A stretch of 64,000 bases of DNA from Escherichia coli (GTDB taxonomy: Bacteria > Pseudomonadota > Gammaproteobacteria > Enterobacterales > Enterobacteriaceae): the NCBI RefSeq assembly GCF_017348835.2, contig NZ_CP071375.1; one strand, 5' to 3'. Positions 1,809 to 48,741 of the stretch are shown here, piece after piece. The notes under the pieces are model-generated. The model saw nothing but the letters and a program-made list of their open reading frames with translations. It was not told where the DNA came from and did not search any database. The translations under genes and the position numbers were made by a program. Each line of letters begins with the position of its first letter. Within the stretch, counting starts at the first letter, position 1.

Positions 1809-2159
1809 TCTCCATGTGTTAAGAGGATAAGCGGGAAAACCGTTACATCAGACAATCGATAAATGTTGCTAATACATTGGCGAGTCGCCGGGTTTCCAGA
1901 CTTAATGCGTTTGTAATAAATGTTGGTTCTCTTTTAATAGGAAAACCTTGCTACAAAGTAAATATTTTAAATAACAGTAAGTTTAACTACTGTTGTTTAT
2001 TGATAGTTTAGATATTATGTGATTTTTCATAGCGCTCCAAATACAAACCACTCCTCATTAATAATGAGATTCACATTGGTGAATTGCTCGGGTGTGCGTA
2101 GCCATGCCACACACACCCTGTTTCAATTTCAGATGACGTATAGCCACCTTAAGATTGAA

Positions 2160-2723
2160 TTATAGATATTGAACCTTGAAGGTCGCATCTGCGTTTGCAG
2201 TACCAGCTACGGACTGCCCGAGTGCAATATAACGAGCCTGGAACGGCAGTATATTCGTGCCATCAATCAAGTCAGTTTTAGCGCTAAAAGTGGCACCATC
2301 AAGTATTAATACCTCACCCGTACGGTCCAAAATTTGGATACCGACATTTTGGGCAGAGCCTGCCGCTGAACTCTGCAGCGCTAACGTATCGTCATTACTG
2401 GTGACAGTAGTACCCAGGAATGCAACAGCTGCATTACTGGAAACATTGGTATCACAATCATTCAGCTTGATATTGAAGCCAACGGCGGAGCTGAGGTCAC
2501 CCGCTTTAGCCAGGCGAGAAGAACGAACCTGACCCAGCTCAACCGTTTGGTTCATTGATTCTGAATCAATCGCACAAGCGGCATTTACCACTTCACCTTT
2601 AAAATGAATAACACCGCCATTAACAGTGGTCGTTACTGATTCATCACCCTCGCCTGCGCTTACCGCAGCAGACGACATCGCCAACACAGAAACGACAATC
2701 ATACCAACATGTTTGAGTTTCAT
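2160..2723 (-). CDS. Major fimbrial subunit (FimA-like pilin)
   Basis: ORF with signal peptide [23 protein letters not shown], Cys pair and C-terminal FKVQYL pilin motif; GGAG ribosome-binding site upstream of ATG at 2723. Confidence 0.8.
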
Positions 2724-3156
2724 AATTCTCCAAAATTTATATTTAAGTAGCTGAATAAAGAGAGTTAACAATTAAGTCATTCTGTTATTGCTTATAAAAC
2801 AAGAATCATTCTTGATTGGTTGTTGCCCTGAGAATATAGTTTCCAGGATTATTACATTTCACGAAGAACGAGAATATCTTTAAATCACAAGGACACCTAA
2901 TCACAACAAGTTTATTGCTGCACTTGTTGAAGAGAGTATTTGCAAAAATATTTTATGTCGCTAAATAACATAACGATTTCATTATGCATGTTATTTATAA
3001 ACCGTGACTAAACAGAATATTATTGCGAACAAGGGAAGTGTCAGGAAAGGTCAAGGGCTACTAATGGTTTATATGGCTATAAATCATTAGCTATAGTTAA
3101 TGTTTGCCTGGTGTAACTAACACCGAATTGCTCTAAACAGATAAGTGCAGGGTTTA

Positions 3157-3411
3157 TTAAAGCTGACCGACAGACTTTCTTAACCTGGTAATATCTCTCT
3201 TAGGTGACTCTCCAAACATCTGCAAATATTCCCGGCGGAAATGGGATAAGCTTTCGTAACCGACAGCATAGGCTGCTGTGGTGACATCGTAATGTTCATT
3301 CAGCATCGTTCGCCTGACTTCATTGAGACGTAGCCATTTCTGATACCGGAGTGGACTCATTCCCGCAAGCTGCCTGAAGTGTTGATGGAAAGAGGGCGTG
3401 CTCATTTGCAC
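3157..3411 (-). pseudogene. yneL: AraC-family regulator fragment (C-terminal HTH only), yneL-like
   Basis: 84-aa ORF carries only the second AraC helix-turn-helix; the overlapping 3320..3577 ORF in another frame does not look like HTH1, so the gene appears truncated or frameshifted. Confidence 0.45.
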
Positions 3412-4117
3412 GCGGTTTGCCAGCTTGAGTCTTCAACGCTGGGAAGATGCGGCAAACGGCAAATCGGCATACCAGCCAGCCTATATCCGTCATGCACAGG
3501 CCAATTATGAAAGAGGAGAGGCTTAAGTTCTGGAACCCTGAACGAATAACGAGCACCGGAAAATCACTTCGTATCACTCAGATGCTATTTAACATAATAT
3601 ACATTATGCGCACCAATATAAACCAAGGGAGAATCTAGTCGTTGGCGGTCATGATTGTCCTGCTCATTAACAACGACCAAACCCCATATCTTACTCTTAC
3701 TTAATACCGTATTCCCGGCTTAACCGACCGTGCAACCTCAACACATTGGTTTCAACTGCCGTCACCACGTTCTCTGGAAAATCTGTCGGTAATGAAGTCT
3801 TCACGTTATCCAGTGCTGCCGGAATCATTCTGGCAAAGTCACTCAGGATTTCATGCATCTGCACTTCCGGGAATCTCAGCACCTTTGCTGTCGCCAAAAA
3901 ATGTCGCGGATAAATTTTATCGATTGCCGTTTTTTTGCCTTTGGATGCGTTAAGCCCCATTGCCAGTTTGAGATCGCTGATGTGTATTCCCGCGCCACCC
4001 AATACCGGAAATGCTGAAATGATGTCGTAAAATGGCGTGAGTCGATAACTGCCGCCAGCCTGAATAAATACGGAGAAGTTTTTTGCATGGCCATCCGTTG
4101 CGCCAATCAGTTCGCTG

Positions 4118-43304: not shown

Positions 43305-44588
43305 TTACAGACTTCTGGAAGGTTGCGCAGCTCTTACAACACGCGGTTGATCTTCCGCGGCGTCTTCCAGCGCACTTAAATCACGGTCTTTCACTTCTGG
43401 CATTTTCAGCGCAGAGATTAAACCAATCACTGAATATGCCATGATCATAATGGCGATCGGATACCAGGATTCCGTCATGGTGCAGAAAATACCCGCCAGG
43501 ATAGGACCAAAACCGGAAGCGATAAGACCACCAATTTCTTTAGAAATAGCCATCCGGGTAAAGCGGTTTTTACAGCCGAACATTTCTGCCATGGTAATGT
43601 TTTCCAGAGCAAATAATCCCAGCACCGCACAGTTATGAATCACAATCAGTGCAACCATAATGGTGCTCGGGGCATAGCTTTTATCTACGATGATAGAAAG
43701 CATTGGCCATGCCAGCACAATCGCAGAGGTATTCATAATAATATACGGGATCCGGCGACCAATTTTATCGGATAACCAACCAAGGAACGGAATGGTCATA
43801 AAGCCGAGAATCGAACTGATCATCAATGCATCTGTTGGAATTGCTTTGTTAAACAATAACGTCTGTACTAAATAGCCTGCAAGGAAAGTCTGAATTAAAC
43901 CGGAGTTACCCGCCTGACCAAAACGCAGCCCTGTTGCCAGCCAGAAGGATTTGCTCTGGAACATGCTACCAGCAGGTGCAGGTTTTGCTGTCGGTTGGTT
44001 GCTGTCGTTAACCTTCTCAAAGACCGGGCTTTCTTTCAGATTCATACGCAACCAGATAGCAAAGACCATCACGACAACGCTCGCCAGGAACGGTATACGC
44101 CATCCCCACGCCAGCAGTTCCTCTTTACTGAGAATGAAGAACATAAAGGCCCAGATTGCCGTTGCGCTTAAGGTTCCGCAGTTAGTTCCCATAGCCACAA
44201 ATGAGGAGATAATTCCGCGCTTACCTTTTGGCGCATATTCCGCCAGCATCGTACCGGCACCGGAAATTTCCGCACCCGCACCCAACCCCTGAATAATACG
44301 CAGCGTCACCAGCAAGATGGGGGCAAAAACACCAATCTGTGCATAGGTCGGTAACACTCCAATTAAGGTGGTACAGATCCCCATCATGGTGATGGTAATA
44401 AAGAGCACTTTTTTACGCCCTATTCTGTCGCCCATTTTGCCGAAAATAAATGCTCCGACAATACGCGCCACATAACCTGCACCGCAGGTTCCCATTGCCA
44501 AAATTAACGCCATTGCCGTTGATGATTCAGGAAAAAATATTTCATGAAACACTAACGCAGCGCCGAGCGAATATAACTGGAAATCCAT
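43305..44588 (-). CDS. ydfJ: MFS metabolite:H+ symporter, probably N-terminally truncated at the prophage junction
   Basis: 427-aa ORF begins inside the first transmembrane region; the conserved GDRIGRK motif is close to the N-terminus. Confidence 0.7.
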   Translation of the reverse strand: MDFQLYSLGAALVFHEIFFPESSTAMALILAMGTCGAGYVARIVGAFIFGKMGDRIGRKKVLFITITMMGICTTLIGVLPTYAQIGVFAPILLVTLRIIQGLGAGAEISGAGTMLAEYAPKGKRGIISSFVAMGTNCGTLSATAIWAFMFFILSKEELLAWGWRIPFLASVVVMVFAIWLRMNLKESPVFEKVNDSNQPTAKPAPAGSMFQSKSFWLATGLRFGQAGNSGLIQTFLAGYLVQTLLFNKAIPTDALMISSILGFMTIPFLGWLSDKIGRRIPYIIMNTSAIVLAWPMLSIIVDKSYAPSTIMVALIVIHNCAVLGLFALENITMAEMFGCKNRFTRMAISKEIGGLIASGFGPILAGIFCTMTESWYPIAIMIMAYSVIGLISALKMPEVKDRDLSALEDAAEDQPRVVRAAQPSRSL

Positions 44589-45192
44589 AATTCACAGGTG
44601 TTTTTTCCCATCCTGTGGTTTCCTTGGCGTTTTCTAGGTTTTTTCAGATAGTTGCATTTTTTAAAAAGCATCCTAAGTTCGATCTCAGTGTCTATCTGGG
44701 GCCTATTTCTGTCCCATATATGCCCCAAAAAAAACTCCCCAACAGATAAGTAGTTTTTTCATGGATTTATGCGTAAAATCAAGAACGGCTGGAAATCATT
44801 CAATACTCACACTATCGAAAAATTTACCAGCCAACCGCAGCACGTTCTTGCATAAGGCGTGTCTGCGGTTTTTCAACTATTCAGATACATCACTCCCATC
44901 ACATTCATTCCTCCGCATCAAAGGCATATAGGCTATATCACCTTGATATTTTTATTTTTCAGATAAAAACTGTTATCTATGTATACTTTTAAACCCAATC
45001 CGTGTAGAGTCTCTGCATAAGATAGTTTGCAGTTGCCGCTTCAGCTTGCGCCATAAATCGCCTGATTTTTGCTGCCACCTGTTAGCATTCCTGTATACCT
45101 GAAACGACAATGTTTATCTACGAACTTTAAGAACACCCAAGATAAAAATTGTCAACTATATCATATATAACACATTACTAATTCGAGGCTAT

Positions 45193-45306
45193 ATGAACAG
45201 CATACTGATAATCACATCTCTCCTTATCATATTCAGCATTTTTAGTCATGCCCTAATAAAATTAGGGATTGGCATATCCAATAACCCAGACAAAACCGAT
45301 GTATAA
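45193..45306 (+). CDS. Hypothetical small hydrophobic protein (37 aa)
   Basis: [37 protein letters not shown]; one predicted TM helix; weak ribosome-binding site. Confidence 0.3.
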
Positions 45307-45374
45307 GTCAACATATCCTGAATCAGACATACAATATCGCAATGAAAATCAATAATATTTTAAGGAATATCTTC

Positions 45375-45608
45375 ATGAAATCAAAAGACACCCTAAAGTG
45401 GTTCCCTGCGCAGCTTCCTGAAGTAAGAATTATCCTAGGGGATGCTGTAGTGGAAGTAGCAAAACAGGGAAGACCTATCAATACCAGAACATTGCTTGAT
45501 TACATTGAAGGAAACATAAAGAAAAAATCATGGCTGGATAACAAAGAATTATTACAAACAGCGATATCAGTTCTTAAAGACAACCAAAATTTAAATGGTA
45601 AAATGTAA
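45375..45608 (+). CDS. ydfK: Prophage cold-shock-associated small protein
   Basis: ORF starting MKSKDTLKWFPAQLPEVRIILGD after AAGGAA. Confidence 0.75.
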   Translation: MKSKDTLKWFPAQLPEVRIILGDAVVEVAKQGRPINTRTLLDYIEGNIKKKSWLDNKELLQTAISVLKDNQNLNGKM

Positions 45609-45924
45609 TATAATAAACTTACTTTTTTATCATTTTTCCACTTTAACAACATTTTGCTCCACTTTTCCACGACCAAACAACTTGAAATCTGGTTAAAATA
45701 ACACGCAACACTATTCTTCTTCCTTGAGTCCGCCCGGAACTCGAAAAACAAACCGAGTTAAAGCCATTTTTCACAAAATCGATTTTGGGTCTCACCAAAA
45801 TTACGGGGTTGCATACGCATTCGTTTATTTTCGAACGTGTACATACAAATATGCACAAAAATAATCAAAATTATTTTCTGAGATGCATTATGATATGAAC
45901 ACCAATTTCGTATAGAGTCTCACT

Positions 45925-46515
45925 ATGTCTCGAATTTTTGCTTACTGTCGGATATCAACGCTGGATCAGACCACCGAAAATCAACGCCGGGAAATCGAAA
46001 GTGCAGGTTTTAAAATCAAACCTCAGCAAATAATCGAAGAACACATTAGCGGCTCAGCAGCAACCAGTGAGCGTCCTGGTTTTAACCGGTTGCTTGCTCG
46101 CCTGAAATGTGGTGATCAATTGATTGTGACAAAACTGGATCGCCTTGGTTGTAATGCAATGGATATCAGGAAAACAGTGGAACAACTGACCGAAACAGGT
46201 ATCAGAGTGCATTGCTTAGCATTGGGGGGCATTGACCTGACCAGTCCAACAGGAAAAATGACGATGCAAGTAATTTCAGCAGTCGCTGAATTTGAACGAG
46301 ACCTTTTACTTGAACGCACTCATTCCGGGATAGTAAGAGCCCGGGGCGCAGGGAAACGTTTTGGTCGACCACCTGTGTTAAATGAAGAACAGAAACAGGT
46401 GGTATTCGAACGAATTAAGTCAGGTGTAAGTATAAGTGCCATTGCCCGGGAATTCAAAACCTCGCGGCAAACCATTTTAAGAGCCAAAGCAAAACTTCAG
46501 ACACCTGACATATAA
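45925..46515 (+). CDS. pinQ: Serine recombinase (DNA invertase/resolvase family)
   Basis: 196-aa ORF with N-terminal catalytic motif YCRISTLDQ and C-terminal HTH. Confidence 0.8.
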
Positions 46516-46612
46516 AAAATAATCTCGGTGTGAGATGCTTTACGTCTTCCAAGCCACCTTCCTTGCCGTAAATGGAAAGATACATCTAATTATAGAATTT
46601 ATATGTTTTACC

Positions 46613-47188
46613 CTACGGCAGTGCTGGCCATTCAATATCCTGTGCAGTTGACGTATCAACACGGTTCAGCAATACCCGATACTTTTTCCATGCTTCCAGC
46701 AACGAGATTTCTTCCTCCGTTGCAATTTCCAGATCTGCAGCATCCTGAAGCGGCGCAATATGCTCACTGGCTACCTGCATCAGGCTGTTTTTTGTTTCTT
46801 CCGCCTCCCGGATCCGGAACAGTTTTTCTGCTTCCGTATCCTTCACCCAGGCTGTGCCGTTCCACTTCTGATATTCCCCTCCCGGCGATAACCAGGTAAC
46901 ATTTTCCGGTAACGGACCGAGTTCAGAAATAAATAACGCGTCGCCGGAAGCCACGTCATAAACCGTTTTACCCCGATGATCTTCAACGAGATGCCACGAT
47001 GCCTCATCACTGTTGAAAACAGCCACGAAGCCTGCCGGAATATCTGGCGGTGCAATATCGATACTGTTTGCTGGCAGACCTGTATGAGGCGGAATATATG
47101 CGTCACCTTCACCAATAAATTCATTAGTTCCGGCCAGCAGATTATAAATTTTTATGGTCCGTGGTTGTTCACTCATTCTGAATGCCAT
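46613..47188 (-). CDS. tfaQ: Tail fibre assembly protein
   Basis: 191-aa Tfa-like ORF directly downstream of the tail-fibre C-terminus. Confidence 0.8.
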
Positions 47189-48741
47189 TATGCAAGCCTC
47201 ACAATATAGTTAAATGCGATGTTTTTGACGGTGTTTTCCGCGTTACCAGCAGCGTTAACGGTGATGGTATGTCCATGTGAACCAATCGCAACGGAGTGCG
47301 TATGAGCACCAATACCGACAGTATGTGCGTGTGCACCTGCGCTTGCAGCAGTACCCGATACAGAGTGCGTATGAGCGCCTGCAGAAGAAGTGTTAACACT
47401 GTATTTAGAGTAATCAGGTGATCCACTTCCCGGAGCACCACTGGAACCACCTGAAACAAATGTCATCGAATGGGTATGTGCACCGGCTGAAGCAGCCGTA
47501 CCGCTAACACTATGGGTATGCGCACCAGTGTTATTCGTGGATTTAGTGCCGTAATCAAACGACGATGTGGTTTTCGTCCCCAAATCCGTACTGGATACGC
47601 TGGCGCTGTGGGTGTGTGATTTAATGCCGTCCTGTTCCTGAGACAATACGGCTCGATCACTGGCGGGCTTGCCCTTAATCGTCCAGCCACGCATATCCCC
47701 TTTCGTTTTCATCCAGTCTTTGACAATCTGCACCCAGGTGGTGAACGGGCTGTACGCTGTCCAGATGTGAAAGGTCACACTGTCAGGTGGCTCAATCTCT
47801 TCACCGGATGACGAAAACCAGAGAATGCCATCACGGGTCCAGATCCCGGTCTTTTCGCAGATATAACGGGCATCAGTAAAGTCCAGCTCCTGCTGGCGGA
47901 TGACGCAGGCATTATGCTCGCAGAGATAAAACACGCTGGAGGGGTCATCCGGCGTCCATTTGAGGCCAAACGGCGTCTCTTTGTCGCCAAATTTAAGATA
48001 CTGCTCCTCCCCGCAGTGCGGGCAGGCAACATGAAAACGCATAAAATGCGGGGATTCACTGGCTGCACGCTCAATCTGGCAGGTGCCTCTCACTTTGGGC
48101 GTGGAGCCACGGATGGACTTTGGCCAGACCGAGCCTTCAATACGTTTGTCGCCAAGGAACGTCGGAGAGCCTTCCTGTTCAATATCCTCATCAAAGGCAG
48201 CAAGTTCATCATAACCCGCCACATCCACCGACTTTTCACGGTAGTTTTTTGCCGCTTTACCGCCCAGGCACCAGAAGCCACGACCATTGGAAAAACGCTT
48301 CATAGTGAGCGTGTTATCCCGGTGCTTTTTGCCATACCACGGAGCCAGCGCCAGCAGCGACGGAATATCGCGGATGGTCGGCTCAACGTGGGTTTTCATA
48401 AAGTTCTCGGCATCACCATCCGTCGGCAACCAGATAAGTGTGTTGCGCTGCTTATGCTCTATAAAGTAGACATAAACACCCAGCAGCATTTTGGAATAAC
48501 CGACACGGGCAGACTTCACCACATTCACCTCACGGATGTAGTCGCTGCCCATCGCATTCATGATGGCCCGCTGAAAGGGCAGTGTTTCCCAGCGCCCTTC
48601 CTGGTATGCGGATTCTTTCGGGAGATAGTAATTAGCATCCGCCCATTCAACGGCGGTCTGTGGCTCCGGCCTGAACAGTGAGCGAAGCCCGGCGCGGACA
48701 AAATGCCGCAGCCTGTTAACCTGACTGTTCGATATATTCAC
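47188..48741 (-). pseudogene. stfQ: In-frame fusion: lambda gpA-like large terminase N-terminal ~350 aa (47694..48741) joined to a side tail fibre C-terminus (47188..47693)
   Basis: ORF starts [23 protein letters not shown]... (lambda A) to ...[10 protein letters not shown], then switches to His-rich tail-fibre sequence ([20 protein letters not shown]...). Confidence 0.8.

Follow-up and report, generated by a model that had tools for sequence, protein, structure and literature searches.

Identity and genomic context of ynfT

The window (the whole 64,000-nt stretch of Escherichia coli DNA analyzed here) carries, near the left end of the Qin prophage, a single copy of an ATG-initiated open reading frame of 37 amino acids on the plus strand, located upstream of ydfK (Table 1). 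The mechanical ORF list contains this frame, with exactly the protein reported in the initial annotation. The frame corresponds to ynfT, a gene of E. coli catalogued before, whose product is a small single-pass membrane protein (the membrane location is predicted). The frame had been described as unlisted, which holds for the ORF track consulted at that time but not beyond it, because RefSeq annotates the same bases as "ynfT: YnaM/YnfT family protein" (WP_120795384.1; positions 3294–3407 of the matching record, L001). The K-12 counterpart is ynfT (b4748, YP_009518787.1) at NC_000913.3 1632890–1633003. Since the gene has been annotated, named and experimentally detected before, nothing in it is new as a discovery.

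The 751-bp region around the frame was 100% identical to that of E. coli PE164 and had matches in 2809 records (2808 genomes). The strain of the window is not K-12, to which the window is 98.6% identical over 4.6 kb. The deduced protein matched the Pfam family PF23676 "YnaM" with 96.2 bits (cutoff 27) over residues 1–37 of 37 and the NCBIfam model NF041477 with 63.9 bits (cutoff 35), and it is identical to the sequence in Table 1 of PMC6001520. A scan of PHROGs returned phrog_35882 as the single match, for which no function is assigned there. With the full-length HMM match above the cutoff, the same CDS and the same synteny, YnfT belongs to the YnaM/YnfT family.

The gene is placed between the truncated MFS transporter gene ydfJ (43305–44588, minus strand) on one side and ydfK on the other, with pinQ (45925–46515) and tfaQ (46613–47188, minus strand) farther inside the prophage. 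The left boundary of Qin maps to approximately 44579, and the cassette with ynfT begins about 600 nt inside it, which bears out the earlier placement near a prophage end.

Table 1. Features of the ynfT locus in window coordinates.
Feature	Position	Strand	Basis
Upstream region common to Qin and Rac; the ynfT promoter must lie within it	44831..45192	+	Alignment of the copies
Shine-Dalgarno GAGG, 4 nt 5' of the ATG	45185..45188	+	Sequence; conserved in 2H10 and 118970_sal3
ynfT CDS, 37 codons and stop	45193..45306	+	ORF list, RefSeq, K-12 b4748, HMMs, selection, published SPA tag
Predicted transmembrane helix, codons 2–29; sequence varies by subgroup, hydrophobicity kept	45196..45279	+	AlphaFold2, hydropathy, alignment
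Conserved helix end and tail, codons 20–37	45250..45303	+	Family alignments
ynfT-ydfK spacer, 68 nt	45307..45374	+	Spacing of 69–75 nt kept in 24/26 loci
ydfK, cold shock protein YdfK, 77 aa	45375..45608	+	RefSeq and K-12 annotation; SD supports the start

Translation and purifying selection

The product of ynfT was detected by VanOrsdel et al. (2018) with a chromosomal C-terminal SPA tag and immunoblotting; the gene was provisionally named ynfQ at that time, and the identical YnaM was listed as well (PMC6001520). Both YnfT and YnaM were also positive in tetracycline-inhibited ribosome profiling (PMC6001520). The SPA-tagged protein was found in LB cultures, expressed from the cryptic prophage, and, tagged at the native locus, it was readily and abundantly seen in growing as well as in stationary cells (PMC6001520; bioRxiv 10.1101/511675). 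According to Weaver et al., YnaM-SPA exceeds the majority of newly found small proteins in abundance, and YnaM had no start-codon peak in profiling with retapamulin or Onc112 (bioRxiv 10.1101/511675). The translation signal that the initial annotation had suggested looking for is thus present in published tagging and profiling data, and its guess of a small prophage protein of the type revealed by such methods was correct, this protein being YnfT.

The frame was also intact in every relative examined, as the initial annotation had expected of a real gene. An ATG-initiated ORF of 37–39 codons was retained in all 39 viral-contig loci found in a motif-based scan and in 5 of 5 loci from species-representative genomes, and a CDS was called in 59 of 59 sampled E. 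coli records covering ynfT (the sample included 60 records spaced evenly down a ranking of 2806). An ORF of the same length is present in the lambdoid phages mEp460 (100% identical) and 2H10 (95.5%) and in the Salmonella phage 118970_sal3 (78.7%). Comparison with the latter copy revealed 15 synonymous and 8 non-synonymous changes, with 15 of the 23 differences at third codon positions. The resulting omega was 0.078 for ynfT and 0.079 for ydfK. Within and between the subgroups of the family (21 distinct nucleotide haplotypes), dN/dS of ynfT varied from 0.07 to 0.28, and all five other frames of the region contain stops.

These values decide against the reading of ynfT as a chance or decaying frame in AT-rich DNA of a cryptic prophage, translated without function. 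Such a reading would fit the very short length of the ORF, its location in a defective prophage, its occurrence in three genera only and the fact that the gene was still uncharacterized in the 2024 y-ome survey (PMC11551758). A frame of this kind would not be expected to keep dN/dS at the above level, with the differences biased to third positions, to stay open in all copies including the complete phage genomes of mEp460 and 2H10, to preserve its Shine-Dalgarno sequence, or to maintain a C-terminal motif at 38–46% overall identity (see below). Because of the substitution pattern, a chance ORF is effectively refuted, and its probability is close to negligible. Judged by the same pattern, ynfT is a real gene under purifying selection.

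The ribosome-binding site had been called weak, and this is only partly right, as the site is moderate rather than weak and is conserved in the Salmonella phage. The calculated energy of the anti-SD duplex was −5.9 kcal/mol for ynfT and −6.1 kcal/mol for ydfK, compared to a median of −3.5 kcal/mol for the long ORFs of the window. Ranked against random positions, the pairing at ynfT is in the top 7%, and no structure is present in the start region.

Protein anatomy and the conserved motif

AlphaFold2 with a family alignment of 17 variants as the input predicted one helix at residues 2–29 and a coil tail at residues 30–37 (mean pLDDT 85), and the mean Kyte-Doolittle hydropathy of residues 4–22 was 2.5. 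The description of the protein as one transmembrane helix with a polar tail is therefore confirmed at the level of prediction. All positive charges of YnfT are located C-terminal to the helix, and, since these are the only ones, the tail probably faces the cytoplasm according to the positive-inside rule.

Twelve positions are invariant in 17 of 17 distinct variants (M1, A20, K23, G25, I26, G27, S29, N30, N31, P32, D33, and D36), and all of them except M1 are in the C-terminal half, whereas the helix sequence drifts. The motif K-x-GIG-x-SNNPD-[KR]-x-D is kept in all four subgroups despite an overall identity down to 38–46%. An invariant motif next to a drifting helix indicates that the selected part of the protein consists of the membrane-proximal helix end and the tail, and codons 20–37 are presumed to form its functional surface.

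A profile search against 1.84 billion cluster representatives gave only 24 hits, most of them fragments, with two divergent full-length homologs of 38 aa. In tblastn against a phage collection, the match was limited to residues 23–37 with the helix masked by the low-complexity filter, and a DNA search was used instead. A sequence search of the PDB with YnfT gave no match.

The small size, the single hydrophobic helix and the prophage location are typical of type I toxins, and YnfT might, in principle, be a toxin-antitoxin-like peptide damaging the inner membrane and held in check by an antisense RNA. Like YnfT, the members of this group (PepG1, Hok, Ldr, Ibs, TisB) are hydrophobic and short, and they are frequently encoded in prophages or other mobile DNA. 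A weak match of YnfT to the model of the type I toxin PepG1 (E 0.055) and a promoter-like site on the opposite strand at 45384–45357 point in the same direction. The PepG1 score of 13.1 bits is, however, far under the 70-bit cutoff, and the region contains 7 promoter-like sites where 6.3 are expected by chance. The Rfam scan of the ynfT-ydfK region gave sub-threshold hits only, with no antitoxin RNA at threshold, and neither an inverted repeat between or around the two genes nor a leader structure was present at the locus. Moreover, the native protein is abundant in both growing and stationary cells, unlike the tightly repressed type I toxins, and its polar, acidic tail is the most conserved part of the molecule. 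A toxin function is, therefore, very unlikely.

Prophage-edge cassette and its distribution

In the phages mEp460 and 2H10, the gene order is int-attP-[ynfT-ydfK]-pin-tfa-stf (tail fiber), and in the Salmonella phage 118970_sal3 it is int-[ynfT-ydfK]-tfa-tail, without an annotated pin. Being inserted between attP and the tail-fiber genes, the cassette comes to lie at the prophage edge after integration. Its GC content is 31–36% across 44950–45850, compared to 46–54% in the tail-fiber genes and ydfJ. The neighbors of ynfT vary and include ydfK, an UmuD-like ORF (assigned by eye), an Acyl_transf_3 gene and a pair of ORFs of 398 and 90 aa. Variable neighbors in an accessory slot flanked by conserved phage modules and a distinct base composition are features of a moron, and, on these sequence features, ynfT belongs to an AT-rich accessory ("moron"-type) cassette which temperate phages of the lambdoid and related types carry in Escherichia, Salmonella and Citrobacter.

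A 251-bp query detected the cassette in 2805 of the 5426 complete genomes of E. coli. The host range is narrow: among approximately 100,000 species-representative genomes, the motif had 2 hits in E. coli, 3 in Citrobacter and none elsewhere, and subgroup B of the family is carried by phages and prophages of Salmonella. For subgroups A (E. coli) and B (Salmonella), 24 of the 26 viral-contig loci have ydfK at +69 to +75 nt from ynfT, and the other two, L036 and L037, lack it. In contrast, ydfK was never nearby in subgroups C (Citrobacter) and D, where ynfT either faces a convergent tail-fiber-assembly gene or UmuD-like ORF or adjoins the Acyl_transf_3 gene. The Citrobacter-type copies are likewise located at a prophage edge, beside tail-fiber or baseplate genes. 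On the other side, no YnfT-like ORF accompanies the distant homologs of ydfK from Enterobacter, Limnobaculum and some E. coli. Each of the two genes thus occurs without the other, and ynfT and ydfK are separable. The constant feature of ynfT is the accessory slot beside the tail-fiber genes at the prophage edge.

Several of these loci have further peculiarities. In L036 and L037 (approximately 1886–4057), the Salmonella-type ynfT is preceded by the 398-aa and 90-aa ORFs, which resemble a toxin/immunity pair by layout only, and a convergent tail-fiber assembly gene is at +42 nt. In L006 (5001–6780), a Citrobacter-type homolog sits at the prophage-chromosome junction, with ruvA, ruvC, aspS and an isochorismatase gene on the host side; its neighbor on the other side, an Acyl_transf_3 gene, may be a conversion gene that modifies the O-antigen. 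Four of the loci with distant ydfK homologs (Pfam PF27475 "YnaE"; L056, L057, L059 and L060, from E. coli and Limnobaculum) lack ynfT, and the homolog is divergent there beside a gene for a small zinc-ribbon protein of the YnfU family (PF23499); YnfU is another small protein of Qin. YnfU and ydfK may represent a second recurrent small-protein pairing. The Enterobacter homologs (L053–L055) have neither ynfT nor YnfU as a neighbor.

Probable co-transcription with ydfK and a possible cold-shock connection

The start of ydfK at 45375 is 69 nt after the ynfT stop. The mechanical ORF for ydfK is longer (45342–45608, plus strand, 88 aa), with the Shine-Dalgarno pairing favoring the 77-aa version (−6.1 vs. 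+0.4 kcal/mol). The protein weakly resembles the YcgZ family of regulatory proteins, with a score under the cutoff (E 0.011), and a PDB sequence search with YdfK gave two non-significant matches only (E 0.32 and 1). No terminator was found in the spacer between the two genes or after ydfK, and the spacer showed no significant structure (fold of −8.3 kcal/mol, z = 0.29 vs. shuffles).

Candidate promoter elements of ynfT are TTCAGA-18-TATACT at 44958–44987 and TTGTCA at 45149–45154, and the last approximately 60 nt upstream of the gene are conserved in the Salmonella phage. Another promoter-like site, not conserved in the Salmonella phage, is located in the spacer at 45308–45335; it could give ydfK a transcript of its own, and the operon is, therefore, only putative. 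The "constitutive promoters" that gSELEX attributed to ydfK and ynaE were considered and rejected, as they map inside ydfJ or beside pinQ and not upstream of ynfT. A search for the cold box (TGACGTACAGA, up to 2 mismatches) gave no match near the ynfT locus, and its matches overall were at the chance level. On the opposite strand upstream of ynfT (44836–44973, minus), exactly at the start of the module common to Qin and Rac, there is a weak, sub-threshold Rfam match to CssrB (Shigella sRNA B), scoring 24.4 bits where the gathering score is 76 (E 0.019).

In published RNA-seq data, ynfT and ydfK were upregulated 5.7 and 5.3 times, respectively, together with cspB, cspG, cspI, ymcE, deaD and rhlE (PMC13058169), and the YdfK and YnaE proteins appear upon refrigeration (PMC5594050). 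The conserved spacing without a terminator and the joint induction make it probable that ynfT is co-transcribed with ydfK in the E. coli and Salmonella versions. Since ynfT occurs without ydfK and ydfK without ynfT, any link to cold shock is not intrinsic to the family.

The same arrangement, with ynfT immediately 5' of ydfK at a constant distance, no terminator and co-induction of both genes, could be taken for a cis-acting leader, i.e., an upstream ORF controlling ydfK, with the peptide itself having no role. Long leaders with a regulatory function are a known feature of cold-shock genes, which would be in favor of this possibility. A leader ORF, however, does not account for the strong purifying selection on the amino-acid sequence and the invariant tail motif, nor for the stable accumulation of the peptide. 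Besides, in the Citrobacter type and in L036/L037, neither ydfK nor any other co-directional gene comes next, the next gene being convergent. The distant ydfK homologs lack such an ORF, and the unstructured spacer has nothing to couple the two genes. Control of ydfK as the sole function of ynfT is highly improbable.

The Rac paralog YnaM and the duplicated module

The Rac prophage of K-12 encodes YnaM (b4744), whose 37-aa sequence is identical to that of YnfT. Its arrangement is similar as well: ynaM is upstream of the ydfK paralog ynaE, near a Pin invertase and a tail-fiber assembly gene, at the prophage edge. The difference is in the prophage and its insertion site, which is ttcA for Rac and ydfJ for Qin. 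The K-12 genes ynfT and ynaM differ by three nucleotides, all of them synonymous and third-position. The module common to Rac and Qin corresponds to 44831–47299 of the window with 98.8% identity, and the two K-12 copies of this 2.4-kb module (L046, L047) had 19 differing positions from −360 to +1900 relative to the ynfT ATG.

Such near-identity makes short-read variants and ribosome footprints in ynfT, ydfK and pinQ prone to cross-mapping. Moreover, around the start codon, the Qin and Rac copies of K-12 do not differ at any position between −53 and +23, and initiation footprints cannot be mapped uniquely there. A likely technical reason for the missing start-codon peak of YnaM may thus be a mapping artifact of the identical start regions, and, as a general caveat for ribosome profiling in K-12, pipelines accepting only unique mapping will miss ynfT. 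The ydfK and pinQ "mutations" described in phage-resistant K-12 mutants were considered as a hint of a role in phage resistance and rejected, as the authors of that work see no link (PMC12844343). These "mutations" were likely caused by cross-mapping between the paralogs of the Rac/Qin module.

Proposed role of YnfT

Several small proteins of E. coli might serve as models for YnfT. AcrZ, MgrB, MgtS and SgrT have fewer than 50 residues, mostly consist of a single hydrophobic helix, and bind a larger membrane protein; they are chromosomally encoded and stress-regulated, and their partners are known. YnfT shares their size and layout, and it was detected with the same type of tagging. It differs in being phage-borne and restricted to three genera. 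By this analogy, the most likely role of YnfT is to act on a larger protein as its membrane-anchored partner, expressed from the prophage.

A phage-borne parallel, and the closest one in function, is gp15 of HK97, a moron-encoded small inner-membrane protein which is expressed from the prophage and blocks phage genome entry (PMC3594210). Both gp15 (YebO-related) and YnfT are small single-pass proteins (the membrane location of YnfT is predicted), are encoded by accessory inserts near tail genes and are expressed from the prophage. The position is different, with gp15 being inside the tail operon and ynfT at the att-proximal edge. No similarity of YnfT to gp15/YebO was detected, the Pfam scan at E ≤ 1 having returned PF23676 alone, and the resemblance may concern a possible mode of action and not family membership. 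None of the PADLOC defense models matched at the locus. Judged by the Pfam, PHROGs and PADLOC scans, gp15 and the small regulators above are analogs of YnfT and not homologs.

Taken as a whole, the best explanation, which we consider very probable, is that ynfT is a genuine translated moron-type gene for a putatively anchored peptide whose tail would bind a partner, with a probable benefit to the lysogen. Of this explanation, the existence of the gene, its translation (in published work), its family membership, the purifying selection and the genomic context are shown, and the membrane location and topology, the operon with ydfK and the binding of a partner with its consequences are inferred. 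The gene is expressed from the silent, cryptic Qin prophage, and, in such a scheme, its level would rise with the cold-shock regulon through co-transcription with ydfK. The variable hydrophobic helix (residues 2–29) would serve only as the inner-membrane anchor, while the invariant motif K23-x-G-I-G-x-S-N-N-P-D33-x-x-D36, probably on the cytoplasmic side, would bind a larger partner protein and alter its activity. The likeliest beneficiary would be the lysogen, for example, through blocking of genome entry by a superinfecting phage or through adjustment of a membrane function in the cold. The leads to this role are the invariant C-terminal motif, the constant position at the prophage edge by the tail-fiber genes and the separability from ydfK.

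A more specific proposal treats YnfT as a protective factor, whose SNNPD tail would block the entry of rival phages or retune a host inner-membrane protein, and which would be turned on together with the cold-shock regulon through the pairing with ydfK in E. coli and Salmonella. This version is rather unlikely as it stands. If true, it would provide a function for a cassette that about half of the complete E. coli genomes contain, and it would be a first case of a protein of fewer than 40 residues mediating temperature-conditioned superinfection exclusion.

Apparent deletion scar farther inside Qin

Farther inside Qin, the window has a 517-aa ORF at 47188–48741 (minus strand), in which the N-terminus of a Noh-like terminase large subunit is fused to tail-fiber C-terminal GAHTHS repeats. 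The RefSeq name of this ORF in strain PE164 is "phage terminase large subunit family protein". In K-12, the counterpart region is divided between stfQ and nohA; the window diverges from it from approximately 47376 to 48733. The fused ORF is apparently a deletion scar of the cryptic prophage.
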